From Capsulimonadaceae bacterium (GTDB taxonomy: Bacteria; Armatimonadota; Armatimonadia; Armatimonadales; Capsulimonadaceae), in contig OZ241338.1 of NCBI GenBank assembly GCA_965200075.1, positions 2,007,898 to 2,071,897 on the forward strand: 64,000 bases of DNA, read 5' to 3'. Below, in pieces: positions 4,024-28,365 of this stretch (positions within the stretch are counted from its first letter, which is position 1; the number at the start of each line of letters is the position of its first letter). Position numbers and translations under genes: made by a program. The notes beneath the pieces are model-generated. The model was not told where the DNA came from. It did not search any database and saw nothing but the letters and a program-made list of their open reading frames with translations.

Positions 4024-4560
4024 ATGAACATTACCATGCACGCCACGACCATTGTGGGCGTTAAACGAGACGGCAAGGTCGCCATCGCCGGTGACGGACA
4101 GGTGACGTTGGACAAAACCGTGATGAAGAACACGGCGAAGAAAATCCGGCGGCTCTATCAGGGCAAAGTGCTGGCGGGCTTCGCGGGAAGCGCTGCCGAT
4201 GCGATGGCTCTGGCGGACCGCTTCGAGGAGAAACTGGATGCGGCGAGCGGCAACCTGCCGCGTGCCGTGGTGGAGTTTGCCAAAGTATGGCGCTCCGACC
4301 GCGTTCTGCGCCGTTTCGAGGCGCTGATGATTGTGGGAAACCCCGAGTACCTGCTGGTCGTTTCCGGCGACGGCAACGTGCTGGACACCGACGACGGCAT
4401 CGCCGCTATCGGCAGCGGCGGCCCCTATGCTCAGGCGGCAGCCAAAGCGCTGCTTGAAAACACCGACCTGTCGGCCAAAGAGATTGCGGAACGCGCTTTG
4501 CATATCGCCGCTGACATTTGTATTTACACGAACAGCAACATTGTGGTGGACGAACTATGA
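4024..4560 (+). CDS. hslV: ATP-dependent protease subunit HslV
   Basis: [23 protein letters not shown], with the N-terminal Thr-Thr active site, and GSGGPYA. The start may be the ATG at 4036. Confidence 0.95.
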
Positions 4561-4562
4561 AG

Positions 4563-4699
4563 AACCTCACCCCAGCCCTCTCCTTCGGAAGGAGAGGGGG
4601 TAAGAACCAGAAAAGACCCGAGAGTCTTGATCCTAATTGTCTGGCTCCTAATTGCCTGGCTCCCTCTCCTTGCTTAAGGAGAGGGCGGGGGGTGAGGTT
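4563..4699. repeat. Inverted pair of palindromic repeat modules (ccctctcctt..aaggagaggg + ggggtgaggtt)
   Basis: Copy 4563-4598 (aacctcaccccagccctctccttcggaaggagaggg) and inverted copy 4662-4699 (ccctctccttgcttaaggagagggcggggggtgaggtt). They flank a 15-bp direct duplication, ctaattgYctggctc. The same module occurs at 56471-56507 and is truncated at 58358-58385. Confidence 0.85.
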
Positions 4700-5522
4700 C
4701 CTTTTGCTCCTCCTCGCCCTGCCGCTTGCCGCGCACGCCCGCGATAGCAAGCCGAAAGACGCCGTGCCCGCCGTGCCCCGCGTGCAGGCGCAGGCGTTCG
4801 CCCTGGGCTATGCCCTGCGGACGGCGGACACACGGGCGCTGGCCTTCACGCAGTCTGTCGAGCAGCTCAAATCGGTGGACGATGATGCGCTGGCCGGGGC
4901 CGAAGTGGCCCGTCTGAGCCGCAATTCTGTGGCCCTGCGGCTGTCCGAGAAGACCGCCTACGCCCAGGTCGCCGCGCAGCTCAAAACGATGGGCGCTCCC
5001 GAATCGCTGCAAACCTGGGCCACAACCACAGTGGCCGGGCTGAGTGCGCCGGTGGTGCTGACCAAAGACGCCAAAGAGCTGCAAAAGACCGAGCCGGACA
5101 CCGCGCAGGTGCTGTCTACCCTGGCCGAGCTGCAAGCGCTCAAAGCAGGCACGAACAGTCGGCAGCAGTCGCTCACCACCTGGCTGGCGCTGACCGGCGG
5201 CAAAGTGGCTGTCTGGTCCGCCGAAACGGGGGCCTACACTGCTGACCTGCACCGGGCGGCAACGGCAAACCGGGGCGCTCTGCCCTCCGGCGCGGCCCGC
5301 GCCCTGCTGGTTCATGCCCCCGCCAATGCGCCTGCGGCCACCCGACAGGCGGTGGCGGATTTGATCCCCACCGGCGGCGGCAACTTGCAGAGTTTAGCGA
5401 CTGTGCCGCCTGCGGACTTCACGCCGGAAAAGCTCACACGGGTCTGCCAAACACTGCTGGATTTGTACGGCGCGAATAGTCTGTCTGCCGCGCTCGATGA
5501 AGCCGCCAAAGACGGCGAATAA
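4692..5522 (+). CDS. Secreted Ala/Leu-rich hypothetical protein inserted between hslV and hslU
   Basis: Listed ORF 4518..5522 reads through the repeat element. An in-frame GTG at 4692 gives a signal peptide (RFLLLLLALPLAAHA), with AAGGAG about 11 nt upstream contributed by the repeat. Confidence 0.55.
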   Translation: MRFLLLLLALPLAAHARDSKPKDAVPAVPRVQAQAFALGYALRTADTRALAFTQSVEQLKSVDDDALAGAEVARLSRNSVALRLSEKTAYAQVAAQLKTMGAPESLQTWATTTVAGLSAPVVLTKDAKELQKTEPDTAQVLSTLAELQALKAGTNSRQQSLTTWLALTGGKVAVWSAETGAYTADLHRAATANRGALPSGAARALLVHAPANAPAATRQAVADLIPTGGGNLQSLATVPPADFTPEKLTRVCQTLLDLYGANSLSAALDEAAKDGE

Positions 5523-15649: not shown

Positions 15650-15681
15650 ACAACTGACAAATGTTATATTTTGTCAGTTGT
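15650..15681. promoter_or_regulatory. Perfect 12-bp inverted repeat, candidate TetR operator
   Basis: acaactgacaaa-tgttatat-tttgtcagttgt, ending 18 nt upstream of the TetR ATG. Confidence 0.6.
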
Positions 15682-15698
15682 CCGGGTATAGTGGGTCT

Positions 15699-16316
15699 AT
15701 GAGCGAACCGCTGACACGCGACAGGATACTGGAGGCAGCGGAAGACGTCCTGCGTCGCTACGGGCCAGGCAAGGCGACCGTGCTGGACGTAGCGCGGGCG
15801 CTGAACGTCAGCCACGGCAGCGTCTACCGGCATTTTGCCGACAAAGCCGCCCTGCGCGATGCCGTCGTGCAGCGGTGGCTGGCGGGAATAGACGGGCCGC
15901 TGGAAGCGATTGCCGCCGAAGATGGCCCCGCCCCCGAGCGCCTAGGCCGCTGGCTGCGCGAGCTGTCGCTGATGAAGCGCCAGCGCCTGCGCGACGACCC
16001 GGAGTTTTTCGCCGCCTATGTCGTCCTGGCCGCCGATGCCCGTGCCGTCACGGAGCGGCACGTCGCTCGTCTGCTCGCTCTGGTGACAGCGATGATCCGC
16101 GACGGCATGGCACGCGGCGAGTTTGATGCTCCTGACGCAGAAGCTGCGGCACGGGGCGTCCTGCTGGCAATGGCTCACTTCCACCACCCCGCCCACGCCG
16201 CCGAATGGACACGCATGGACAAAGACATCGACGCCTATTTTGACGATGTCTGGACGATTGTCCGGCGCGGCCTCAGCCCTTCCCCGACACAGAAAGCACA
16301 CGGAGCCACACAATGA
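15699..16316 (+). CDS. TetR/AcrR family transcriptional regulator
   Basis: N-terminal HTH (RILEAAEDVLRRYGPGKATVLDVARALNVSHGSVYRHFADK). An ATG at 15699 is preferred over the listed TTG at 15678. Confidence 0.85.
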   Translation: MSEPLTRDRILEAAEDVLRRYGPGKATVLDVARALNVSHGSVYRHFADKAALRDAVVQRWLAGIDGPLEAIAAEDGPAPERLGRWLRELSLMKRQRLRDDPEFFAAYVVLAADARAVTERHVARLLALVTAMIRDGMARGEFDAPDAEAAARGVLLAMAHFHHPAHAAEWTRMDKDIDAYFDDVWTIVRRGLSPSPTQKAHGATQ

Positions 16317-17110
16317 AACTGACCGACAACACTCTTTTAATCACTGGCGGCAATTCCGGCATTGGCCGGGCGATGGCCGAAGCGTTTCACAAGCGCGGCA
16401 ATAAAGTCATCATTGCCGGGCGCACCCAGAAAACGCTGGACGAAGTGACCGAAGCAAACCCCGGCATCGAATCGCTGCGCCTGGACATTGGCGATGCGGG
16501 CAGCATCAAAGCGTTCGCTGCCACGCTGACCGAGAAATACCCCGCGCTGAATGCCGTTATCCATATGGCAGGCATCATGCAGAACGAGTACCTGCAAAAC
16601 CCGACAGCCGCGCTGGAAGTCGCCGAAGCCACGGTTGCCACCAATCTGCTTGGCCCAATCCGCCTGACGGAAGCCTTGCTCCCCGCGCTGCTGAAACAGC
16701 CTGCCGCCGCCATTTTGACCGTCTCCTCGGGCCTGGCCTACGTGCCGCTGTTTATGACGCCCACGTATTGCGCCACCAAAGCCGCCGTCCATTCCTACAC
16801 CCAGTCCCTGCGCTTCCAGCTCAAAGACACTTCGGTCCAGGTGATTGAGCTGATCCCGCCCTATGTCCAGACTTCGCTGATGGGTGAGCGCCAATCTGAA
16901 GACCCCAACGCCATGCCGCTGGCCGACTACGTCTCCGAAACCATGCACCTTTTGGAAACCCAGCCCGACGCCGCCGAAATTTTAGTGGAGCGCGTCAAGA
17001 TGCAGCGGTTCGCCGAGCGCGAAGGCAAGTACGATGCTTTCTACAGCCAGTTCAATAGCACAATGGCAAAAGCGCGGCACGAAGAGTGGGAGAGGCTGGC
17101 GAAGAAGTAA
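16313..17110 (+). CDS. SDR family oxidoreductase
   Basis: LITGGNSGIGRAMA (TGxxxGxG) and YCATKAA (YxxxK). ATGA overlap with the TetR gene. Confidence 0.9.
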   Translation: MKLTDNTLLITGGNSGIGRAMAEAFHKRGNKVIIAGRTQKTLDEVTEANPGIESLRLDIGDAGSIKAFAATLTEKYPALNAVIHMAGIMQNEYLQNPTAALEVAEATVATNLLGPIRLTEALLPALLKQPAAAILTVSSGLAYVPLFMTPTYCATKAAVHSYTQSLRFQLKDTSVQVIELIPPYVQTSLMGERQSEDPNAMPLADYVSETMHLLETQPDAAEILVERVKMQRFAEREGKYDAFYSQFNSTMAKARHEEWERLAKK

Positions 17111-17143
17111 GTGGAACAAAAACCTGCCTGCAACATCAAATTT

Positions 17144-17884
17144 CTATTGCTCGTCTCTTTCAAGTTTACACAAAGGGCATAGTGTTTTGTCGGTTTGGGA
17201 TGACCGCAAGCGAGATGCGGGTCTGCGGAAAGAATGACCGCATTCCAATGAAATCTGGACAGCAGAGCCAAAGTGTCTTGTTGCTTTGGCTTTCTCTACG
17301 GAAACAATTTGTCGCCACATTAAATCGACGACTTGAATAGCTTTCCATTTATAAGAAAGGGCTTCAACGGGGCAGGGGCCGACATAATCTAGGAAGTGCT
17401 GTACACGACCGCCTCGCAGATACAATGAATTATTTTGTTTGAGGCGAAACTGTAGGTTTTGCTCTTGAAGTTTTGACACAAATCCTGATAACGCTTCCCG
17501 GTCAAATCCATATGTTCCAAATTCAATATGCTGGACTTGTTTTTCTGGATTCGCCATTAAAAACCCGTCTCCAAGATATTCATTTAGGAGCAGGGATGGA
17601 GTGACTTGCAAGTCTGAAGGTAGAAGTTTTTTGCCCTGCGGATACCAGTATTGATACGCTGAGACATAAATAGGGCTTGTTCGAGTACTTAACAGCCAGT
17701 ATTGGTATTTGCCAGAGGGATGAGGGCCGCTGATGCGCGATTCTGTAGGCAGCCATGAAGCGACCCATTCCAAAAAAGTCGGCTCCTTGCACGTTTGCTG
17801 GTAGCGGGGGTAGTGGCATTGACCGGGAACAGTCAGGTTGCCATCCGACATTAGGATACCGTCTAGCAGTTCAATCCATGACAT
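17144..17884 (-). CDS. Free-standing LAGLIDADG-type homing-endonuclease-like protein
   Basis: Two LAGLIDADG-like motifs (WIELLDGILMSDGNL and LLNEYLGDGFL) with the usual spacing. C-terminal C..H…CxxC cluster (ECGHSF…CPLC). AT-richer patch. ATG 17884 is preferred over the listed TTG 17911, which lies inside the terminator stem. Confidence 0.6.
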   Translation of the reverse strand: MSWIELLDGILMSDGNLTVPGQCHYPRYQQTCKEPTFLEWVASWLPTESRISGPHPSGKYQYWLLSTRTSPIYVSAYQYWYPQGKKLLPSDLQVTPSLLLNEYLGDGFLMANPEKQVQHIEFGTYGFDREALSGFVSKLQEQNLQFRLKQNNSLYLRGGRVQHFLDYVGPCPVEALSYKWKAIQVVDLMWRQIVSVEKAKATRHFGSAVQISLECGHSFRRPASRLRSSQTDKTLCPLCKLERDEQ

Positions 17885-17909
17885 TGGAATACCGTCCGTG
17901 AAAAGATAC

Positions 17910-17939
17910 AAGCCGGAAGCGAGAAATCGCTTCCGGCTT
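17910..17939 (-). terminator. Hairpin terminator after nrdJ
   Basis: 12-bp stem aagccggaagcg-agaaat-cgcttccggctt, 13 nt after the nrdJ stop. Confidence 0.65.
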
Positions 17940-17951
17940 TTGTCGTCAAGG

Positions 17952-20900
17952 CTACGAGCAGCCTAGAGAAGTCCCGCAGGAAACACAGCGGTAGCAGGCT
18001 CCGTTGCGAATGGTAATCGCGCCGCATTCAGGGCACGGCGGGGCATCGGACTGGGCGCGGTAGATTTCGCGCTCGTGTTCGCTCAGCGTCGCCGTCCGGG
18101 TGTCGGCGAGGTGGGACAAGTCCCCTGTGCCGTTCCCATTTTTGATCCCGCTTCCGTTGCTGCCGTTGCTCAGTGTGCCGCTGCGGGCATCGTGCGCCGG
18201 GTAGGCATCGTCTGCGGGCTGGTCGGCGAGGAGGCCGACATTGTGGCGGTCTTCGGCTTGCAGGAAGCGCAGGGCCAGATAGCGGAAGATATAGTCCATG
18301 ACGGACTTTGCCATCGGTATCTCTTTGTTGCCGGTGAAGCCCGACGGCTCAAAGCGCGAGTGGATGAACTTGTCTACCAGCGTTTGCAGCGGGACGCCAT
18401 ATTGCAAAGCCAGCGAGATCGCGGTAGCGAAGCTGTCCATCAGGCCCGAAATGGAAGAGCCTTCTTTGGACATCCGAATGAAGATTTCCCCTGGCTGGCG
18501 CGTGTCCGGGTACAGCCCCACCGTCAGGTAGCCCTCATGGCCGCCGATGCTGAACTTGTGCGTTACGCCGTCCCGCTCATTGGGCAGGCGGCGGCGGACA
18601 GCCTTCGGAACCGCCGGGATGAGCGTCGCCGAGGATGTTTCCACTTCGTCGGTCTGTACGGCTGCCTTGTCTGCGGCAGGGGTTTCCTTGCCCATGTTCA
18701 GCGGCTGCGTGCGTTTGGAGCCGTCCCGGTAGACAGCGACCGCCTTGATGCCCAGCTTCCACGCCTCCATATAAGTCTCGGCAATGTCGTCGGGCGTCGC
18801 GCTGTTCGGCAGGTTGACCGTATTATGGTTGACGATGCCGTTGCCCACAAAGGCATGAGTGACGGGCACAGACACATCGTAGACCGTCTGCACCCCGGCC
18901 TCGTTGACTTCGGTGACGGGGCTGAAGCGCAGGTTGTCCCGCAGGACGCTTTGCAGCCATTCCGGCAGGACGACGCCCGGACGGGCAGCAACACGCTCCA
19001 GGGTGCGCCGACTGACCTGCTTCGTGCGCGGGTCGGCCAGGAAATAGAACTCGGCCCGTGCGCGGCCCGCCGGGATCAGGGCTTGCAGCGCACGGCCTGT
19101 GAGACCCGGCACGACATCCGCCGTGCTTTGCGCGAACGTGCGGGTCAGCAAACGCGCCGCCGAGGCGGCTTTGTCCGGCTCCATGAAGGGAACCAGACGC
19201 GCAAACTGCTGCGCCCATTCCCCGGCCAGATACACCTCGTCATACGTCTTGCCGTTGGTGTTGTTCTTTTTGGAGATGCGGCTGTGAACCAGACCCAGGT
19301 TAGTGAGAATGGCCTGCAAGTCGTCGAGCAGCAGGGGCGCGTCGAGGCAGAGTGCCACGCGGGCCAGTGTTCCCTCTGGCACGGCATAGCCATCCAGCAT
19401 CAGGCCGGACAGGAACGACAGCACCATCGGGCGGGGCGACTGCAAAATCGCATCGGGAATGCGCTTGGCCGAGGCCCGCGCCCCGCAGCCCAGGGCTTCC
19501 ATCCACAGCACAATGCGCTTGGAGGACACTTTAACCCCCGGACATTTGCCTGGCTGACGCTCGATCACGGCCTTGACACCGAACTCGGACTGCCAGGCGC
19601 TAACCGCCCGCTCCAGAACGGCGTCTACTGAGTTAGTCAGCGTCACAGTCCAGTTGGAGCGCGTCGTGTGCCCTTCGGCGGCATAGGCTCCCAGCAGCCA
19701 GGCTAGCTCTTCGGTCATGGTTTCGGGCAGCGCGACGCGCTTTTCAGACCCGTGCAGCGGCGTGGTCAGAACCGGCAGACGCGGCGGGGTTTCGGCCCAC
19801 AAATCCGTGCCGTACTGCGTCGCCACGGCTTCGCCCGACTCGATTTCGTCCAGCCGCACCCAGTCCAGCCGCCCGGCGCGGGCCACCAGCAGGCGATGGT
19901 TGGGTGTGCCGGTGATGCGATGCCCGGAGCGCAGGGTCACGCCCAGGGTCGGCTTGCCGCCGCCGTAATAGAAGGCATCCGTCTCCCGCGTACCGCCCAG
20001 GGAGGCCAGCGGCAGGCGGGCCGGGCGGAACGTGTCCGGCTTTTCGTTTTGGTAGAGGCTGCCGATCCGCACCAGACCCCGACCCGTCGCCAGCAGCGTG
20101 TCGCCGGTAACGCATTTGCTGATCGCTCCCGAAATGAACGGCTGGGCCGCCGCCATCATTTTGATGTGGCCCCGGTAGTGGATCGAGCGGGTTCCGTTCA
20201 TGGGCCGGAAAGCGCAGTCAAAGATGGGCAGATGCTCGGGCTTCAAATCAGTCGCGCCCTCGATGGTGTCATGCTCATCAATGAAGCCGATGATACTCTG
20301 CCGCTCGGCTTCCGAGTAGCCCAGACGTTCCAGAGCTTCAGGGACGGTCTGGTTGACAATCTTCATCATGCCGCCGCCGACCAGCGACTTGTACTTGACA
20401 ATGGCGATGTCCGGCTCAATCCCCGTCGTGTCACAATCCATCAAAAAACCAATGGTGTTATGGGACACAAAACCCTGCGCGATATAAGTCACGTTGGCCG
20501 GGACCGACAGGTCATAGGTCAGCTGTTCGCCGCCGTCTTCATTGGACGCGATTACATCATAGAAGAAGCGCAGGGCATGACCGACCCGCGCCTCCTGCGT
20601 CGCCGCATACAGCGCCTCGGCAGACCGGCGCGTGATCGCCCCAGGATGGCGCTTTTGCGACAGCGTAATCGCGTTGTAAAGCGGACTGTTTTTGGGCACA
20701 AGCTCGGCAATCACTTCGGGGGCCAGATAGATATAATCGTGCCGGGCCGCCTGTTCGCTCTGGCTTTTGGAAACCAGCCCTGCCTTGCGGGCGCTCATAA
20801 AGCCAACAGCTTCACGGTAGCGGGCCGTGTACGACGTATTCCGCAGGCGCAGCACCCAGAGCGGCGACTGTCCCCAGCCGGTCGTGTCCTGCTTAGTGGA

Positions 20901-23900
20901 GGTCGGGATGCCCAGCGCCAGCAGCAGGGTTTTGACTTCTTCGGAGAAGGGCCGATGCACCGTACTCCAGCAGGGCACGCCGCCCGTCACCGTACCGTCG
21001 GCTTCGTACAGGCCACGCAGGAACGCGCCATAAACCGCCGGGTCGTTTGTCGCCAGCACAGCGTCAGGAATGCGCGGCAGGTAGCCTTTGCCCGAATGCT
21101 CCGGGCCGGGCGACAGCTTCGCAAAGCCGCACGCCTCCCACCACAGTGTCAGCGGCACGGAATGCACCGCGACCTCGCAGTAGCCCTGCTGCGGCGTCAA
21201 ATGCGCGTCCAGATTGAACAGCGATTTGACTAGGAATTGCACACGCTCCGCCACATCCAGATCAGTGTTTGCTACGCAGAAGCGCGGGCCTTTGGCGTGC
21301 ATCGAGCCGTCGCCCATGAAGTAGCCAATTAGCTCCGCCAGGTCCGCCGTCATCGTCCGAGGAACCCGCGTGGTGTAGTCACCGGTCCAATACTCCTCGC
21401 CCAGCGGCGGCAGCGTGACGGCCTGCGGCTCGCCGAGCATCTGTCCCATTGAGAGCGCCACTACATCGCCCGGCGCGATGTCGCCGAACCGTTTCCAGTC
21501 CCAGTGCCCCGTGGCGGCGTCCACCACTTTGATTCGGTGCTTGGGCGTGCCCTGAATGGCATAGCCCGTTCGCGTGGTAATGCGCCGCGTGGCGTCTCGC
21601 CCGTTGACATAGAACTTGGTCGCCTGCTGCTGGCCTGTGTCGGTCAAAACGCCAAAGTTGACATCCTGCCACTGCGAACCGTGCACGTCACCCAGCCGGT
21701 TCAGCCGCACTACGCCCCGGTCGGTGATGACCAGTGACCCAGCCACTAGGCAGCCCGTCGGTGCGAGTACCGTGGCCTGTGCGTTGCGGTAGCCGTGTAA
21801 TTCCCCTAACGCGACCGTCTCGTCCCAGGCGGTCCGGGCGGCTTGGAGCAGCGTTTCGGGGATGAGGGCGGCGTCGATGTCGTCCACGGCGGCGCGGTGC
21901 TTGCCCATGACCCGCAGCATCGGCTCGCGGTTGTGGGCATAGCCTGCGAACGGTCCGCCGCAGTCGCGGGCGACCTGTGCGGATTGATGATACGCCCGCC
22001 CCGTCATCAGCGAAGTCACGGCCCCGGCGTAGGCCCGGCCCGCGTCGCTGTCATAGGGCAGCCCCGCCGCCATTAGCAGTGCCCCGAGGTTCGCGTAGCC
22101 CAGCCCCAGAGGCCGGTACTCATGCGAGCGCGATGTGATTTTCTCCGTCGGATAGTGCGCGAACCCGACCATCATCTCCTGCGCCGTGATCATGATTTTG
22201 ACCGCGTGTTCAAACGACGCCGTATCAAACGCCCCGCTCCCCGCCTCCCGGAACTTCATCAGGTTCAGCGATGACAGATTGCAGGCCGTGGAGTTCAGGA
22301 AGAAGAACTCGCTGTTGGAGACGACGATTGAGAGCAGCCCTGCCGAATGACCATCCGTGATAGCAAAATTGTGTGTGCCTTCCACTTCCATATCATAGAC
22401 GGCTACGTCATCTTCCAGCGTCAGCGGCGTCACCGACAGCAAAACATCGGCGGCCTCGGCCAGCGTTGCCACCAGGGCTTCCGAGTTCTCCGGCAGGTCT
22501 TTCGCCGCGCAGCGCAGAGAGCAAAGCGCCGTGCCGACAGCAAGATGACGCGCTTCTACAAACTCACCACCTTGCGTCAGGAACCGATGCTCCGGCGTAC
22601 AGCGGAAGGTCAAGCCCCGCTCCGTCTTGACTTCTACCAGCTCCCGCGTGTGGCCCGCAATCCAGACTTTGTTGATCGCTTGCAGTGCAGGCTGCCGATT
22701 GTGCCGATCAAAGGAGAAGACCGTCGGCAGGTCCTCGCCCGCTTCGTGCCGCGCATAGAGCGAGGCAAACGGGATTTGCCCTTCGGCGGTTTCAATCAGC
22801 GTTTCCCCCACAAAGCAGCAGGGATTACTGGCGTAGATGCGGTCGGTGTTGGCGCAGGTGTGCCAGTCGTTCGAGATGGTGTCGAACTGCATTCCGGGGT
22901 CACCGCACGTCCACGTTCCTTCGGCGATGGAGTGGAGCAGGTCTTTGGCCCGCAGGGTTTCGGCGGTCTCGCCGGTGGTGCGGAACTTGGTGTCCCAGGG
23001 GCCGTCGGCCTCCGCCGCCTGCATAAACTGGTCAGTAACGCGCACGCTGTGGTTGGCATTCTGGAAGGGCACGGTGTCATACGCACCATTCGCCACATTG
23101 AACGCCCCCGAATAGCCTGCGTCAATCAGCGCGTGGGCTTTCAGCTCGGCGTCTTTCTTGCAGTCCACAAACTCCTGAATATCGGGGTGGTCGGCATCCA
23201 GAATCACCATCTTGGCCGCCCGGCGCGTGGAACCGCCGCTTTTGATGCTGCCCGCCGAAGCGTCCAGCCCCTTCATAAACGCTATCGGCCCGCTGGACCG
23301 CCCGCCCGCTGCCAGCGGCTCTTTGGACGAGCGCAGGGAAGACAGATTCTGGCCGCTACCACTGCCGTCTTTAAAGAGCATTCCCTCAGTCTTGTAGAGG
23401 TCTAATATGCTCTCCATTGTGTCATTCACTTCCGTGATATAACAGTTGTGCAGGAGGATGCCTTCAGCCCAAAATGTCTCACTTTCGGTCTGAATGTCAT
23501 AGACGTATTCGGAGCCGCCCTGCGTTTTGCTGACTAGCAGCACGTCCGAGGCCCGCAGCGAAGACGCTATCGCAAGCTGCCGCTCGGTCATCCGAGCCTG
23601 CTTTTCCGCATGGGTGAAGCCGACATGCACTTCAAACTGCTCCACAGACAGATTGTCGTGAATACCCAGCGAGTAAGAAGTCTTACGGGCGTAATCGTCG
23701 CGGGAGTCTGTGTAAGCCGTCAGCGCGGCATAGATACCCAGCGAGCGAAGCAGGGTTTGCGCGGCCTGTACCAGCGGCAGGCTGGTGTTGGAAAAGACGG
23801 GCAGGCGGCGGTTTTCGTTTTGCGACACATGACCATCGGCGTCAAACAGACCGCCCAGGAATGCGCCGATATTTTTCGCGCTGGTCCGGTAAATCCATTC

Positions 23901-25697
23901 GGGAACCTGTTTGTCACCGACGCGGCCCCATAGGCCAAGTGCCGACCAAAAGGCGCGGCTGACTGCGCCATGTCCGCGCAGGCAGAAGCCCCAGGATTTG
24001 ATATGAGTGCGGAACGGGACGCCGTACTTGGTCAAGACAGCTTCGGCCCGGTCCTTCTCCGGTACAGTATTAATTTTCAGGTCCCAAGTGTCGCTGGTCA
24101 GTGATTGAGAGCGCCCGCAGTAGCCATCACCAACCATCAGGCCGGTCAGCCAGGCGAGGTCTGTGTCGGGCGTCAGCGAGTGCAGGTCTTGAACGGTCGT
24201 TTTCGGCAGCAGCACCGAGCGGCTCAGGATAAGCCGATCTACGCCAGCCACCAAATTTCCCGCTTCTTTTTCCACAATCTCGCCCTTGTAGCCGCGCACA
24301 AAAACGCGGTGGTTGGACGTGCAGCGCAGGGTCGATCCGTCGGCCAGGTGGTAGCGGAACACGCGCTTGCGGCCATTGCACACAGCAGCCACAATCCGCG
24401 ACGGGGAGCCATCGGGCGCGAAGGTGAAGATTTGGGCTTGGGGGTTGGCCCCGAACAGCCGCACAATCTCACCAATCGGCAGCAGGCCCCGGTCAGTGTT
24501 GACACGCACGTCATAGGGCAGGCACGCACTGACCGCCTGGCGGCGGCCTGCCCAGCCCAGGTTGAACCAGACGGGGGAGTTGAAGGCAGCGTACTGGTGC
24601 AGCAGAATGTAGCGCAGCTCGTCGTGGAACACTTCGGCGTCGGCGTCGGAGGCGAAGTAGCTGCCCTCACGGCCCCATTCAACGATGCGGTCAGCGACGC
24701 GGCCAATGAGCTGCTTGACGCTGTATTCGCGCTCTAACGTGCCAATCTGGCCCCGGAAGTATTTGGACACCACAACGTTGGTAGCAAGCTGAGACCAGGC
24801 TTTGGGGATTTCGACGCCGCTCTGCTCAAAGACGACTTTGCCGTCGCTGCCGACGATGCTGGCGGTTCGCAGCTCCCAGTCGGTAGTTGCCCAGACGTCC
24901 TGGCCAGCTTCGGTGTAACGGCGCTCAAACGTCAGGCCCGGCGCGGGCGTGTCGACGGGTGCGGCTTTGGCCTTTTTGGCGGGCGCGGGAGGCGGCTCCG
25001 GTGCGGCCAGCAGCTCAGGCTCAAGCAGGGCTTCGGCGGCGGCTTCGGGCAGGGCTTCGGCAAGAGGCGGCTCAATCTCCTGCTCGACTTCGGGCGCGGC
25101 CACAGGGTCCGCAAAGGCGTCCAGGTCTGGGCCTGCCTCGGTCATCGGCTCCGCCTCTATTTCGCCCACTGGCTCCGGCTCAGCCAGCAATTCGGGTTCG
25201 GCTAATTCGGGTTCGGCTAATTCGGGTTCGGCTAATTCGGGTTCGGCCAATTCGGGTTCGGCTAATTCAGGTTCGGCCAATTCGGGTTCGGCCACTGGCT
25301 CCGGCTCGGACATTGGGGCGGCCTCGGCGGGGGCTTGAAAATCTTCGCGGGCGGCCCGCAGGGGGCTGGCTATCGGGGCAGGCTCATCGGCCAGCATTCG
25401 GGCCATGACGCTGTCCTCAAAGGGGTCTTCCTCGCCGAAGGGGTCCGACTCGGCGGCCTGCGCGATTTGCGACGGTGCGGGGAAGCTGCCGACGGGGACG
25501 TCCGCCGGATGCCTGGCGGTCAGGTCGACGTCTTCGCCACCAAATAGCGCCCCAGCCGGTTCCGTATCAGGCGCGGTGAGAGGGGCGAGCGTCGGGGCAG
25601 GCTTGCGGGCGGCGCGGGGCTTCATCGGCTCTTCGTCGCCGAGCAAATCGAGCGTAGTTCCTGTGGTGTTTTTCTTGCCATTGCTTCGTTCGGGCAT
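17952..25697 (-). CDS. nrdJ: Adenosylcobalamin-dependent (class II) ribonucleotide reductase NrdJ precursor with four inteins
   Basis: Extein motifs: GLTFERRYT…, SNPC|SEFFFLNSTACNL (thiyl-radical loop), APTG|TIGFLMDCDTTGIEPD, ISK|TVNLPNS, and a C-terminal CPECG…CYRCVSCG zinc ribbon. It is downstream of nrdR, with AGGAAA 6 nt before the ATG. Confidence 0.95.
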   Translation of the reverse strand: MPERSNGKKNTTGTTLDLLGDEEPMKPRAARKPAPTLAPLTAPDTEPAGALFGGEDVDLTARHPADVPVGSFPAPSQIAQAAESDPFGEEDPFEDSVMARMLADEPAPIASPLRAAREDFQAPAEAAPMSEPEPVAEPELAEPELAEPELAEPELAEPELAEPELAEPELLAEPEPVGEIEAEPMTEAGPDLDAFADPVAAPEVEQEIEPPLAEALPEAAAEALLEPELLAAPEPPPAPAKKAKAAPVDTPAPGLTFERRYTEAGQDVWATTDWELRTASIVGSDGKVVFEQSGVEIPKAWSQLATNVVVSKYFRGQIGTLEREYSVKQLIGRVADRIVEWGREGSYFASDADAEVFHDELRYILLHQYAAFNSPVWFNLGWAGRRQAVSACLPYDVRVNTDRGLLPIGEIVRLFGANPQAQIFTFAPDGSPSRIVAAVCNGRKRVFRYHLADGSTLRCTSNHRVFVRGYKGEIVEKEAGNLVAGVDRLILSRSVLLPKTTVQDLHSLTPDTDLAWLTGLMVGDGYCGRSQSLTSDTWDLKINTVPEKDRAEAVLTKYGVPFRTHIKSWGFCLRGHGAVSRAFWSALGLWGRVGDKQVPEWIYRTSAKNIGAFLGGLFDADGHVSQNENRRLPVFSNTSLPLVQAAQTLLRSLGIYAALTAYTDSRDDYARKTSYSLGIHDNLSVEQFEVHVGFTHAEKQARMTERQLAIASSLRASDVLLVSKTQGGSEYVYDIQTESETFWAEGILLHNCYITEVNDTMESILDLYKTEGMLFKDGSGSGQNLSSLRSSKEPLAAGGRSSGPIAFMKGLDASAGSIKSGGSTRRAAKMVILDADHPDIQEFVDCKKDAELKAHALIDAGYSGAFNVANGAYDTVPFQNANHSVRVTDQFMQAAEADGPWDTKFRTTGETAETLRAKDLLHSIAEGTWTCGDPGMQFDTISNDWHTCANTDRIYASNPCCFVGETLIETAEGQIPFASLYARHEAGEDLPTVFSFDRHNRQPALQAINKVWIAGHTRELVEVKTERGLTFRCTPEHRFLTQGGEFVEARHLAVGTALCSLRCAAKDLPENSEALVATLAEAADVLLSVTPLTLEDDVAVYDMEVEGTHNFAITDGHSAGLLSIVVSNSEFFFLNSTACNLSSLNLMKFREAGSGAFDTASFEHAVKIMITAQEMMVGFAHYPTEKITSRSHEYRPLGLGYANLGALLMAAGLPYDSDAGRAYAGAVTSLMTGRAYHQSAQVARDCGGPFAGYAHNREPMLRVMGKHRAAVDDIDAALIPETLLQAARTAWDETVALGELHGYRNAQATVLAPTGCLVAGSLVITDRGVVRLNRLGDVHGSQWQDVNFGVLTDTGQQQATKFYVNGRDATRRITTRTGYAIQGTPKHRIKVVDAATGHWDWKRFGDIAPGDVVALSMGQMLGEPQAVTLPPLGEEYWTGDYTTRVPRTMTADLAELIGYFMGDGSMHAKGPRFCVANTDLDVAERVQFLVKSLFNLDAHLTPQQGYCEVAVHSVPLTLWWEACGFAKLSPGPEHSGKGYLPRIPDAVLATNDPAVYGAFLRGLYEADGTVTGGVPCWSTVHRPFSEEVKTLLLALGIPTSTKQDTTGWGQSPLWVLRLRNTSYTARYREAVGFMSARKAGLVSKSQSEQAARHDYIYLAPEVIAELVPKNSPLYNAITLSQKRHPGAITRRSAEALYAATQEARVGHALRFFYDVIASNEDGGEQLTYDLSVPANVTYIAQGFVSHNTIGFLMDCDTTGIEPDIAIVKYKSLVGGGMMKIVNQTVPEALERLGYSEAERQSIIGFIDEHDTIEGATDLKPEHLPIFDCAFRPMNGTRSIHYRGHIKMMAAAQPFISGAISKCVTGDTLLATGRGLVRIGSLYQNEKPDTFRPARLPLASLGGTRETDAFYYGGGKPTLGVTLRSGHRITGTPNHRLLVARAGRLDWVRLDEIESGEAVATQYGTDLWAETPPRLPVLTTPLHGSEKRVALPETMTEELAWLLGAYAAEGHTTRSNWTVTLTNSVDAVLERAVSAWQSEFGVKAVIERQPGKCPGVKVSSKRIVLWMEALGCGARASAKRIPDAILQSPRPMVLSFLSGLMLDGYAVPEGTLARVALCLDAPLLLDDLQAILTNLGLVHSRISKKNNTNGKTYDEVYLAGEWAQQFARLVPFMEPDKAASAARLLTRTFAQSTADVVPGLTGRALQALIPAGRARAEFYFLADPRTKQVSRRTLERVAARPGVVLPEWLQSVLRDNLRFSPVTEVNEAGVQTVYDVSVPVTHAFVGNGIVNHNTVNLPNSATPDDIAETYMEAWKLGIKAVAVYRDGSKRTQPLNMGKETPAADKAAVQTDEVETSSATLIPAVPKAVRRRLPNERDGVTHKFSIGGHEGYLTVGLYPDTRQPGEIFIRMSKEGSSISGLMDSFATAISLALQYGVPLQTLVDKFIHSRFEPSGFTGNKEIPMAKSVMDYIFRYLALRFLQAEDRHNVGLLADQPADDAYPAHDARSGTLSNGSNGSGIKNGNGTGDLSHLADTRTATLSEHEREIYRAQSDAPPCPECGAITIRNGACYRCVSCGTSLGCS
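18822..20114 (-). mobile_element. Intein 4 (431 aa, LAGLIDADG endonuclease domain)
   Basis: Starts CVTGDTLLATGRG after GAISK. Block B is GTPNHRL. LAGLIDADG pair LLGAYAAEGH / FLSGLMLDGY. Ends …GNGIVNHN followed by Thr. Confidence 0.85.
20457..21752 (-). mobile_element. Intein 3 (432 aa, LAGLIDADG endonuclease domain)
   Basis: Starts CLVAGSLVITDRG after VLAPTG. Block B is GTPKHRI. LAGLIDADG pair LIGYFMGDGS / FLRGLYEADGT. Ends …QGFVSHN followed by Thr. Confidence 0.85.
22314..22817 (-). mobile_element. Intein 2 (168-aa mini-intein, no endonuclease domain)
   Basis: Starts CFVGETLIETAEG directly after SNPC. Block B is CTPEHRF and block F is VYDMEVEGTHNFAI. Ends …LSIVVSN followed by Ser, so the penultimate residue is Ser rather than His. 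Confidence 0.75.
23445..24524 (-). mobile_element. Intein 1 (360 aa, LAGLIDADG endonuclease domain)
   Basis: Starts CLPYDVRVNTDRG after …RRQAVSA. Block B is LRCTSNHRV. LAGLIDADG pair LTGLMVGDGY / LGGLFDADGH. Ends …WAEGILLHN followed by Cys. Confidence 0.85.
25189..25293 (-). repeat. 15-bp in-frame tandem repeat x7 inside the nrdJ 5' region
   Basis: Plus-strand unit aattcgggttcggcY repeated 7 times (one G>A variant), encoding (AEPEL)7. Flanked by near-identical cactggctccggctc segments. Confidence 0.95.
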
Positions 25698-25740
25698 GAT
25701 GTTTCCTATCGTTTATAAGTGAATAAATTAATTTTTGGGG

Positions 25741-26229
25741 TCAATCTTTTCGCAGACGACTGCCCTGTTTTTTGAGCAGGTTCACAATGTCGCGGAACTG
25801 GGTGGCGTCTTCAAACTGGCGATACACGGAAGCAAAGCGGACATAGGCGACATGGTCCAATCGGCGCAGGTGGTCCATGACCAGCTCGCCGATTTCCGCC
25901 GAGGGCACTTCTTTGTCCAGGCGGTTGGTCAGGGTTCGCTCAATGTCATCCGTAATGTCTTGCAGCGTTTCTTCCGAGATGGGCCGCTTCTGGCAGGCCA
26001 CGCGCAGGGAGCGCAGGAGCTTGTTGCGGTCAAACGGCTCCCGGCGCTGATGGCCGTCGCGGTCGGGCTTTTTGACCACCGTGAGCTGCATTTCTTCAAT
26101 GGTCTCAAATGTGGTGAAGCGCCGTTCGCAGTGCTTGCATTCCCGGCGGCGTTTGATTGCCTCCCCATCGCGCAGGGGCCGGGAATCCAAAACCGCATCG
26201 TCGTCATGGCCACAGTAGGGGCACTTCAT
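25741..26229 (-). CDS. nrdR: Transcriptional repressor NrdR
   Basis: MKCPYCGHDDDAVLDSRP zinc ribbon (second pair CKHCERRFTTFE) followed by an ATP-cone. Confidence 0.95.
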   Translation of the reverse strand: MKCPYCGHDDDAVLDSRPLRDGEAIKRRRECKHCERRFTTFETIEEMQLTVVKKPDRDGHQRREPFDRNKLLRSLRVACQKRPISEETLQDITDDIERTLTNRLDKEVPSAEIGELVMDHLRRLDHVAYVRFASVYRQFEDATQFRDIVNLLKKQGSRLRKD

Positions 26230-26267
26230 GGAACCTGCTTTGTTGAGACCTTCATTTGGGACGGCGC

Positions 26268-26315
26268 TTCCTATATCTTGTGCAGAATTCTAGTATAACA
26301 TACTAAATATAGGCT
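26268..26315 (-). promoter_or_regulatory. Two candidate NrdR boxes, centres 32 bp apart
   Basis: 26268-26283 TTCCTATATCTTGTGC (11/16) and 26300-26315 ATACTAAATATAGGCT (12/16), scored against the NrdR-box palindrome acaCwAtATaTwGtgt (consensus quoted from memory). The second box lies in the promoter spacer. Confidence 0.45.
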
Positions 26316-26320
26316 GTCAA
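26292..26320 (-). promoter_or_regulatory. Sigma-70-type promoter of the nrdR-nrdJ operon
   Basis: Minus strand TTGACA (26315-26320), 17-nt spacer, TATACT (26292-26297), about 60 nt upstream of the nrdR ATG. Confidence 0.55.
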
Positions 26321-26514
26321 GGAAGACTGGGGAAAGCCATGAGATTCTTTTTTCGGCGGCTCACAAAAACGGCGGTAGAACAATTGGTGTTTGCCCGGTC
26401 ATATTTTCTCTTCTTCTGATTAGACTACTCATAAACCGGGTACTGGATTTCAAACTGGAGAGGGTAACCCGTAAAGCAGCCTCAAAAACTGGAACCAAAA
26501 AATAAGGTATTGCC

Positions 26515-28365
26515 ATGAGCATTATTCATCCCCGCGACACCGTCAGCGACTTCGTAATTGACCGCCTCCTCGAATGGGGCGTTGACCACATCTTCGGCTT
26601 TCCCGGCGATGGCATCGGCGCCTTTGATGGCGCTCTGGGCCGCGCCGATAGTGCTGACTTGCCGCTGAAATACATTCGGCCCACGCACGAAGAAATCTGC
26701 GCTTTGATGGCGACTTCCTACGCCAAATGGACAGGCAAGCTTGGCGTGTGCGCCGCGACTTCCAGCCCTGGCGCCTTCCATATGCTCAACGGTCTCTACG
26801 ACGCGCAGATGGACAATCAGCCCGTCGTAGCTATCGTCGGGCAGCAGGCGCTGGAAACGCTGGGCAGCGGCTATCAGCAGGAAAACAACCTGGAACGCAC
26901 CTTTGCCGATGTCGCCGCCTATGTGCAAACCATTGTAACACCAGGGCAGGCTCAGGTCGTGATTGACCGTGCCTGTCGTATCGCTCTCACGCACCGGCAG
27001 CCCTGCGTCGTCGTGATCCCACACGACGTGCAAAAGATGAAACGTCAGGAGGCGCCCGACAAGATGGATGTTTCGCGCTCTTCGCCAGCGCCGACCTCGA
27101 TCAAAATCACGCCGCCTTTGGATGAACTGATGCGTGCCGCCGATATTCTCAAATCCGGCAAACGCATCGCTCTCCTGGTAGGCGCCGGAGCGCTGGGCGC
27201 GACCGACGAAGTGCTGGAACTTGCGAACAAAACCGGCGCGGGCATCATTACGGCGCTGCGCGGCAAAGACGTAATTCCCGGTGACGTTGATTTCAACTGT
27301 GAGCAGCTGGGGCTTTTGGGCAGTTTGCCTTCGCTTAAAATGATGCAGGAATGCGACACCTTTGTGATGATCGGCTCCAATTACCCGTATGGCGGCTATT
27401 TGCCCAAAACCGGTCAGGCGCACGGAATTCAGATCGATTTGCGACCCGGACAGTTGGGCGTGCGCTATCCAATGGAAGTTAATTTGTGGGGCGACGCCAA
27501 AGCGACTTTGCAGGCGCTTTTGCCGCTCGTCATACAGACCGAAGACCTGAGTTTTCAACAGAAAGTCTCTGAGGGCAGGCGTGCCTGGGACGGCATAATG
27601 CACGATTTAGCCTACGACCAAGCCGATCCGATCAACCCGCGCCGCGTGTTTTATGAGATGAATGAGCGTTTGCCCGATGGTGCGGTTGTGACCTGCGACG
27701 CCGGTTCAACCGCCGATTGGTACGGGCATCATGTCCACTTGAAAAAGGGGATGCGCGGCGATTTGTCGGGTCGCCTGGCGACGATGCTGGCAGCGATGCC
27801 CTACGCGGTGGCGGCGAAGTTCGCGTTTCCTGATAAGCCCGTTGTCTGCACGATTGGCGACGGCGCGTTTCAGATGCTGGGCATGAACGAACTCATCACG
27901 GTCAAAAAGTACCAGCATCTGTGGCCCAACAAACAGTTGGTCGTGATGGTCTTGCACAACGACGATTTAACGCAAGTCTCGTGGGAAATGCGAACCGAAG
28001 ATGGCAATCCGCGCTGGGAAGGCTCGCAGGCTATACAGACCGTGGATTATGCGGCCTACGCCGAAATGCTGGGGTTCAAGGGGATCACAGTCACCGACCC
28101 GAACAAAATCGGCGAAGCGTGGGACGCGGCGTTCGCGCACGACGGTTTGACTTTGCTCGATGTTCATACCGACAAAAACGTGCCGCCGCTGCCCCCGCAT
28201 ATTTCGTTCGAGTTTGCACGCAACACCGGCGAGGCTCTGCTCAAGGGCGACCCCGATGAGAAAGGCGTCATCGTGGATTCGGTCAAGGCGCTGGTTACAG
28301 AGAAAGTCTCCGAAGTCAAAGAAGCGCTGCATTTGGGACACCGCACACACGAAGACGAGAATTAA
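26515..28365 (+). CDS. Thiamine-diphosphate-dependent pyruvate oxidase/dehydrogenase (PoxB-like)
   Basis: N-terminal TPP-enzyme domain (VIDRLLEWGVDHIFGFPGDGI…) and TPP-binding motif GDGAFQMLGMNELITV…VLHNDDL. Confidence 0.85.
   Translation: MSIIHPRDTVSDFVIDRLLEWGVDHIFGFPGDGIGAFDGALGRADSADLPLKYIRPTHEEICALMATSYAKWTGKLGVCAATSSPGAFHMLNGLYDAQMDNQPVVAIVGQQALETLGSGYQQENNLERTFADVAAYVQTIVTPGQAQVVIDRACRIALTHRQPCVVVIPHDVQKMKRQEAPDKMDVSRSSPAPTSIKITPPLDELMRAADILKSGKRIALLVGAGALGATDEVLELANKTGAGIITALRGKDVIPGDVDFNCEQLGLLGSLPSLKMMQECDTFVMIGSNYPYGGYLPKTGQAHGIQIDLRPGQLGVRYPMEVNLWGDAKATLQALLPLVIQTEDLSFQQKVSEGRRAWDGIMHDLAYDQADPINPRRVFYEMNERLPDGAVVTCDAGSTADWYGHHVHLKKGMRGDLSGRLATMLAAMPYAVAAKFAFPDKPVVCTIGDGAFQMLGMNELITVKKYQHLWPNKQLVVMVLHNDDLTQVSWEMRTEDGNPRWEGSQAIQTVDYAAYAEMLGFKGITVTDPNKIGEAWDAAFAHDGLTLLDVHTDKNVPPLPPHISFEFARNTGEALLKGDPDEKGVIVDSVKALVTEKVSEVKEALHLGHRTHEDEN

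Follow-up and report, generated by a model that had tools for sequence, protein, structure and literature searches.

Ribonucleotide reductase (RNR) is the second most common intein host among bacterial proteins, and inteins in it have already been recorded in Armatimonadetes (PMC4760082). The commonest RNR insertion site lies before the radical cysteine, and the NrdJ-1 split intein sits one residue after it (Dassa et al. 2009; PMC2677866). Later papers quote the RNR gene of Trichodesmium (Liu, Yang and Meng 2003, J Biol Chem 278:46826) as a four-intein example (PMC2874743, PMC1635734, PMC10710043), and for two decades it was cited as holding the maximum per protein; five inteins in eukaryotic Prp8 were reported in 2023 as remarkable, four having been the highest number described before (PMC10710043). 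Here we analyse the nrdJ gene of a Capsulimonadaceae bacterium (Armatimonadota), located on the minus strand of a 64,000-nucleotide stretch of contig OZ241338.1 (assembly GCA_965200075.1, positions 2,007,898 to 2,071,897; hereafter the window). This gene is very probably a genuine and apparently functional nrdJ with four inteins, numbered 1 to 4 from its 5' end, which would be spliced to an enzyme of 1190 amino acids (aa), and inteins 1, 3 and 4 would be capable of homing. The RNR of Trichodesmium erythraeum is likewise a bacterial catalytic-subunit gene with four inteins in one frame. Three group II introns are present in the Trichodesmium gene as well, whereas none was detected in the window nrdJ, which is one continuous open reading frame (ORF) and gave a null result with Rfam over positions 16000-27000; the host phyla differ as well (Cyanobacteria and Armatimonadota, respectively).

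The precursor is encoded by a single uninterrupted frame of 2581 codons over 7.7 kb, exactly as an earlier note, made from the letters of this DNA alone, had described it. The gene is nrdJ, and the class II adenosylcobalamin-dependent RNR that it encodes, whose activity is predicted, is the long form, which includes a TSCPD domain and a Cys-rich tail. A Pfam scan of the precursor gives four Intein_splicing stretches, LAGLIDADG_3 domains, the RNR barrel, the class II N-domain and TSCPD, with PF08471 at 1.6e-21 and TSCPD (PF12637) at 1.7e-10, and the tail carries the pattern CxxC...CxxC (CPECG...CYRCVSCG). Excision of the four inteins leaves a 1190-aa product that matches NF005122 in a single stretch (residues 243-1190 against positions 12-960 of the 960 in the profile; 1369.5 bits, cutoff 859), TIGR02504 (544.8, cutoff 399.95) and the solved NrdJ structures 7b9q and 1xje. 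In the alignment to Thermotoga maritima 1xje, C134, N320, C322, E324 and C333 all have counterparts in the window NrdJ. In the T. maritima enzyme, C322 is the thiyl-radical cysteine, and C134 and C333 are the redox pair. Five intein-free orthologues (L008, L010, L011, L012 and L014), taken from a scan of species-representative genomes of related Armatimonadota, are 81-85% identical to the spliced protein and have zero gaps at all four junctions. Because the insert boundaries coincide exactly with these gap-free junctions, the inserts are far beyond chance. The earlier note had named failure of the spliced product to align with NrdJ as a possible refutation; the product proved collinear, end to end against NF005122 and gap-free against the five orthologues. 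The closest relatives in that scan are metagenome-assembled Armatimonadota, mostly Capsulimonadaceae, several of which have an intein-free nrdJ.

All four inserts are in frame, and their coordinates and lengths, recomputed here, are exactly those given before; together they make up 1391 of the 2581 codons, or 53.9% (54% in the earlier note). With a slash at each splice point, the junctions read AVSA/CLPYD...ILLHN/CYIT for intein 1, SNPC/CFVGE...IVVSN/SEFF for intein 2, APTG/CLVAG...FVSHN/TIGF for intein 3 and AISK/CVTGD...IVNHN/TVNL for intein 4. The intein signatures claimed previously are all found, namely Cys1, a block B of the form TxxH and a terminal Asn in all four, with Cys, Ser, Thr and Thr as the respective +1 residues, and the residues at the boundaries are conserved in a multiple alignment, the second check that had been suggested. 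On T. maritima NrdJ, intein 1 lies immediately ahead of C134, to which its +1 Cys aligns, intein 2 right behind C322 in the N-P-C-x-E motif, intein 3 between G492 and S493, and intein 4 between K597 and T598. Since this alignment and the residue roles place them at active-site positions, all four inserts split catalytic motifs, in agreement with the claim that each sits inside one.

Profile searches support this anatomy. Among the isolated inserts, Pfam detects LAGLIDADG_3 (PF14528) in inteins 1, 3 and 4 and none in intein 2, so that the statement that three inteins retain paired LAGLIDADG motifs stands, the second motif of intein 4 being the weakest. NCBIfam recognises intein N- and C-terminal splicing regions, together with similarity to the inteins of GyrA, DnaB and further proteins that carry them, and the profiles PF14890, TIGR01445 and TIGR01443 give HINT support for inteins 1, 3 and 4. 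Alleles at each site were drawn from the 120 best-scoring database relatives of the precursor (20, 12, 92 and 22 for inteins 1 to 4), with the inserts mapped by global alignment with cheap gap extension. Across the 20 alleles of intein 1, the 92 of intein 3 and the 22 of intein 4, no variation is seen at Cys1, at Thr and His of block B, at Asp of block F, or at the penultimate His and the terminal Asn. The acidic LAGLIDADG residues are conserved as D or D/E (one Q among the 20 alleles of intein 1); the key residues of intein 1 are invariant or conservatively replaced across its 20 alleles, and those of intein 3 are invariant in its 92 except for one Ser in place of Gly in the second LAGLIDADG motif. 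By their intact anatomy, the four inserts are canonical (class 1) inteins, and autocatalytic splicing is predicted for them.

Intein 2 is a mini-intein whose HINT fold is confidently predicted: its AlphaFold2 model has a pLDDT of 93.5 and a pTM of 0.88, and the top Foldseek matches in the PDB are the DnaB, RecA, DnaE and NrdJ-1 inteins, with TM scores up to 0.86. Among the 50 PDB matches listed, nearly all are inteins, with a few bacterial intein-like (BIL) or hedgehog HINT domains. Intein 2 occupies the same insertion point as the NrdJ-1 split intein, whose structure (8ubs) is among the closest structural matches of the model (root-mean-square deviation 2.2 A). Their sequence similarity is marginal (E = 0.1), and intein 2 ends in Ser-Asn; moreover, it is contiguous whereas NrdJ-1 is split, and no endonuclease gene breaks the host gene in the window. 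Pairwise identity among the four inteins is 24-27%, or there is no detectable similarity, and they are therefore independent arrivals and not duplications; a recent duplication of one intein, which was considered as a candidate, is ruled out on the same grounds.

Table 1 Coordinates of nrdJ, its segments and the associated features in the window; splicing, promoter and regulatory assignments are predicted
Feature	Position	Strand	Remarks
nrdJ precursor ORF	17952..25697	-	2581 aa; five extein segments and four inteins
N-terminal extension	24972..25697	-	about 242 aa, low complexity, outside the NrdJ profile, whose match begins at residue 243
Extein segment 1	24525..25697	-	aa 1-391; ends ...RRQAVSA
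Intein 1	23445..24524	-	360 aa; Cys1, block B TSNH, LAGLIDADG motifs MVGDG and FDADG, terminal HN, +1 Cys
Extein segment 2	22818..23444	-	aa 752-960; CYITEV...IYASNPC, last residue the Cys aligned to T. maritima C322
Intein 2	22314..22817	-	168 aa; mini-intein without endonuclease; Cys1, block B TPEH, terminal Ser-Asn, +1 Ser
Extein segment 3	21753..22313	-	aa 1129-1315; SEFFFLNSTACN...VLAPTG
Intein 3	20457..21752	-	432 aa; Cys1, block B TPKH, LAGLIDADG motifs FMGDG and YEADG, terminal HN, +1 Thr
Extein segment 4	20115..20456	-	aa 1748-1861; TIGFLMDCDTTG...SGAISK
Intein 4	18822..20114	-	431 aa; Cys1, block B TPNH, LAGLIDADG motifs YAAEG and LMLDG, terminal HN, +1 Thr
Extein segment 5	17952..18821	-	aa 2293-2581 and stop; TVNLPNS..., TSCPD domain, CxxC...CxxC tail
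Near-identity tract to L081	23359..24557	-	intein 1 with 33 nt of 5' extein and 86 nt of 3' extein
Predicted promoter of the nrdR-nrdJ operon, sigma-70-type	26292..26320	-	TTGACA, 17 nt, TATACT; TG before the -10; 11/12 consensus matches
Putative NrdR box 1	26303..26312	-	core CTATATTTAG, inside the promoter spacer; paired with box 2
Putative NrdR box 2	26271..26280	-	core CAAGATATAG, just 3' of the -10 hexamer; paired with box 1
nrdR, repressor of RNR genes	25741..26229	-	162 aa; Zn_ribbon_NrdR 1.5e-21, ATP-cone 5.7e-23
Intrinsic-terminator-like hairpin	17910..17939	-	13-bp stem, 8 GC pairs, T-rich tail; 13 nt past the nrdJ stop
Free-standing LAGLIDADG_2 homing-endonuclease gene	17144..17884	-	246 aa; PF03161, 8.5e-12; directly 3' of nrdJ

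The divergence between the window and its closest relatives points to inteins that are maintained and in part still moving. For the endonuclease and splicing parts, the ratio of nonsynonymous to synonymous substitution rates (dN/dS) is 0.05-0.13 in comparisons with relatives of about 85% protein identity (dS about 1). The exteins lie in the same range (0.04-0.13; about 0.12 against relatives at dS about 1), which indicates that the endonuclease domains of inteins 1, 3 and 4 are being maintained. The closest relative of the window NrdJ is a five-intein protein (P0002, locus L081) with exteins 97% identical. Against this locus the extein core differs at 229 of 2823 nucleotides (nt) (8.1%, dS 0.37), and intein 1 at only 5 of 1080 nt (0.46%, dS 0 to 0.009; Fisher p about 1e-26 for intein 1 against extein divergence). 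The low-divergence tract has a sharp 5' edge 33 nt outside intein 1, while on the 3' side it fades from 86 nt, with divergence climbing over the next 300 nt. Because the neighbouring genes show a dS of 0.13 (a thiamine pyrophosphate (TPP) enzyme) and 0.47 (nrdR), the trough at intein 1 is not genome-wide. Recent homing, or gene conversion, with co-conversion of the flanks is expected to leave such a pattern, and we infer from it a footprint of recent homing of intein 1, relative to the five-intein locus, as the new element of this analysis. The other inteins behave differently in the same comparison. Intein 3 shows a partial low-divergence tract with a breakpoint inside the intein: its first 125 codons differ at 34 of 375 nt (9.1%) and its last 307 codons at 15 of 921 nt (1.6%). 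Intein 2, without an endonuclease, is more diverged than the exteins are (81 of 504 nt, 16%), and intein 4 gives no clear mobility signal. In distant hosts, intein 3 alleles are 72-75% identical to that of the window where the host exteins are 63-66% identical, and alleles that are more alike than the exteins again indicate horizontal movement of intein 3. No close alleles of inteins 1 and 3 were found by tblastn in 50,697 phage records. The matches there were all distant inteins, of about 25% identity and located in genes for terminase, portal and helicase proteins, and this collection lends no support to phages as intein vectors, a candidate that was set aside.

Two side observations concern the L081 locus itself. 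DDE transposase genes (4186-5085 and 16539-18428) stand on either side of its nrdR-nrdJ operon. Transposase genes also break its downstream short-chain dehydrogenase gene; the dehydrogenase gene of the window is intact (16313-17110) and is accompanied by a TetR gene (15678-16316).

Some observations nevertheless weigh against a fully functional four-intein gene that still spreads its inteins. Splicing, endonuclease activity and RNR activity are all deduced from sequence. Intein 2 lacks the penultimate His and ends in Ser-Asn, though this Ser is kept in its 12 close alleles (distant alleles end in His-Asn). A missing penultimate His slows Asn cyclisation in some inteins; it is not strictly required, and DnaE inteins ending in Ala-Asn or Ser-Asn splice well. 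In intein 4 the second LAGLIDADG motif is weak: the Pfam match is confined to the first motif, and 5 of 22 alleles have another residue in place of the Gly. The search for RNR genes covers the 64-kb window, and a second RNR may lie elsewhere in the genome. Finally, the identity tract rests on one pair of metagenome-assembled sequences, for which a cross-assembly artefact is conceivable.

Two alternatives take up these points. One holds that the gene is decaying or non-functional, so that one or more inteins no longer splice and deoxynucleotides are made by another RNR elsewhere; besides the missing His of intein 2 and the 64-kb scope of the survey, it can draw on the inactive intein-laden RNR genes proposed in some phages (PMC3653736). 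We regard it as very unlikely, because the frame has stayed open over 7.7 kb, the exteins are under the purifying selection given above with all catalytic residues present, the splice residues are invariant across alleles, and the promoter, the NrdR boxes and nrdR itself (see below) are intact and conserved. In addition, tblastn found no RNR paralogue, and no further inteins, in the window. The other alternative is that metagenome assembly or binning, through chimeric contigs or collapsed strains, has artificially produced the architecture or the near-identity of intein 1 to the relative. Although every related locus retrieved is a metagenome-assembled genome and recent homing is read from a single sequence pair, each intein occurs at the same codon in many independent assemblies, as the distinct alleles counted above attest, the precursor is on a 4.14-Mb contig, and a sharp 5' edge with a graded 3' edge fits gene conversion and not a read-length chimera, which makes this explanation the least probable of those considered, with hardly any weight left to it.

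If the gene is the functional four-intein nrdJ that we favour, its 2581-aa precursor would be inactive until every intein has excised itself. Each excision would comprise an N-S acyl shift at Cys1, trans-esterification to the +1 Cys, Ser or Thr, and cyclisation of the terminal Asn, and the four together would yield the 1190-aa enzyme. The earlier note had spoken of four sequential splicing events; four are indeed needed, but nothing in the sequence imposes an order, since the inteins are unrelated and each is autonomous in principle. The LAGLIDADG endonucleases of inteins 1, 3 and 4 would let the intein DNA home into empty alleles, and intein 1 would have homed or been converted very recently, either in the lineage of the window or in that of its closest relative. 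Mini-intein 2 may persist because only a precise deletion could remove it.

Such a mechanism treats the inteins as selfish elements. They could instead have been domesticated as conditional-splicing switches, responding for example to redox state or stress, through which RNR maturation is regulated post-translationally. Two of the junctions lie at catalytic cysteines (the +1 Cys of intein 1 aligns with C134, and the -1 Cys of intein 2 with C322, which makes a Cys-Cys pair at the latter junction), purifying selection on the inteins is as strong as on the exteins, and possible regulatory roles of inteins in replication-related proteins have been discussed (PMC4760082, PMC10643990). However, occupancy is patchy, with 36 patterns among the relatives described below, and close relatives have intein-free alleles 81-85% identical to the spliced protein, which argues against a fixed beneficial role; furthermore, a selfish homing element would be expected to show both the conservation of endonuclease residues and the co-conversion tract. 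We therefore consider domestication improbable, if less so than decay of the gene.

The exact precursor protein (P0001) is already in NCBI/ENA, and its relatives place the four inteins in a wider context. The 120 best relatives are cluster representatives, and the choice of query biases the list toward intein-rich proteins; within it, one intein per protein is found in 36, two in 48, three in 20, four in 13 and five in 3. The 13 four-intein clusters include that of the window itself. There are nine insertion sites and 36 occupancy patterns, and the combination of the window (a+f+h+i) is unique among the 120. The description of four inteins in one gene as rare consequently holds for the published record and fails for the sequence data of this clade. 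Multi-intein alleles from Armatimonadota and related environmental bacteria (P0002, P0037, P0050, P0012, P0024 and others) share with the window the NrdJ subfamily, the nrdR-nrdJ operon and the insertion sites. The closest of them, P0002, has the same four inteins and adds a fifth at GTWT/CGDP, a site that is empty in the window. In short, it is already known that an RNR gene can hold four inteins (since 2003, in Trichodesmium), the exact window protein is public, and multi-intein nrdJ is common in the clade.

Several further features of these relatives were seen. The five-intein precursors are 2900 aa (P0002, L081 6001-14703), 3016 aa (P0037) and 2940 aa (P0050) long, and in the latter two a pair of inteins is separated by just four extein residues (...HN/SGGT/C...). 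The two sites flanking the thiyl-radical cysteine, SNP/C (extein 599) and SNPC/S (extein 600), are occupied in 34 and 37 of the 120 relatives, respectively, and never both in one protein. At site 600 the insert varies with the host: some proteins have a mini-intein of about 168 aa there, others an unrelated intein of about 446 aa that carries HNH/NUMOD domains.

A comparable situation has been described in haloarchaeal MCM genes, where one conserved replication-related gene is also hit at several nearby sites (up to four) by independent inteins with LAGLIDADG endonucleases, with patchy occupancy and ongoing homing (Turgeman-Grott et al. 2023, PMC10643990). Those genes encode another protein in another domain of life, and homing was shown there in vivo whereas here it is deduced from a divergence trough.

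The regulatory context of nrdJ is also in order. As previously claimed, nrdJ is downstream of nrdR, with a gap of 43 nt, and L081 and L082 have the two genes in the same order. The promoter-like site upstream of nrdR is the only strong one within 16900-26600. Two NrdR-box-like palindromic cores of 10 nt, 32 bp apart centre to centre, overlap the spacer between the -35 and -10 elements and the region of the transcription start. The box consensus used is the one reportedly given by Rodionov and Gelfand in 2005. Thirteen related loci keep this pair upstream of nrdR, which implies that nrdR controls its own expression along with that of nrdJ, with binding being predicted. On this evidence, nrdR and nrdJ are predicted to be co-transcribed from one promoter controlled by NrdR boxes. 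Rfam, run with permissive thresholds over 16000-27000, returned neither a riboswitch nor an intron, and a match to Chloroflexus-1 there was dismissed as chance (21 bits against a gathering score of 181).

Beyond the putative terminator, a free-standing LAGLIDADG_2 gene begins after 26 nt in an AT-rich island (GC content 0.44-0.49 against about 0.6). Homologues with 64-69% identity lie directly 3' of nrdJ in three other genomes (L007 8586-9317, L012 7630-8364 and L082 9001-9774), one of which has an intein-free nrdJ, and the closest relative, L081, lacks the gene at this position. The endonuclease gene is associated with the nrdJ locus and is not part of the NrdJ protein, and it might promote co-conversion of the nrdJ 3' end. 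Free-standing endonuclease genes beside RNR are known from phages, for example mobE of T4, and there too the RNR gene holds endonuclease-bearing selfish elements (PMC2790892); the T4 case is an HNH endonuclease in a phage, whereas the endonuclease of the window belongs to LAGLIDADG_2 and lies in a bacterial chromosome.

At the other end of the gene, the first 25 or so residues of NrdJ (MPEKSNGKK..GTTLDLMGDEE) are conserved in relatives, on which ground the ATG at 25697 is taken as the true start. A tandem repeat at 25189-25292 (15 bp x 6.9) encodes (AEPEL)x7 within the N-terminal extension. The extension is 30 aa shorter in L081, and Capsulimonadaceae share two conserved short peptides in it, GTTLDL[ML]G[DE][DE]E and GGALFGG[DE]D. 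Both are loosely similar to bacterial sliding-clamp-binding motifs (QL[SD]LF), for which they are candidates at most. Long open frames also run antisense to nrdJ on the plus strand, at 18075-19631 (518 aa), 19752-21233 (493 aa) and 22347-23405 (352 aa); such frames commonly arise in GC-rich coding DNA, which is the most likely explanation here.

The additions of most interest are thus the homing footprint of intein 1, the density of intein sites across the clade and the conserved LAGLIDADG endonuclease gene 3' of nrdJ. As an unusually clean example, the gene combines four unrelated inteins in one essential enzyme, each at a catalytic motif, and the footprint of recent homing can be measured. 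Taken with their native +1 Cys, Ser, Thr and Thr junctions, the four inteins are also candidate orthogonal splicing parts for protein engineering. Tentatively, and with somewhat more doubt than confidence, we suggest that the nrdJ of Armatimonadota (Capsulimonadaceae and relatives) may be the most heavily and most actively invaded bacterial intein host yet seen, with at least nine sites, 36 patterns among 120 relatives, five-intein alleles equal to the published record per protein, inteins four residues apart, at least one intein that would still be homing, and a 3' LAGLIDADG gene that could mobilise nrdJ segments and inteins in trans. If this were true, the window allele would be one snapshot of a natural system for intein competition and cooperation in one gene. 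Close relatives supply intein-free, two-, three- and five-intein nrdJ alleles, and the clade is a natural test bed for the coexistence of inteins, the exclusion between adjacent sites, the hitch-hiking of mini-inteins and the role of nearby free-standing endonucleases.

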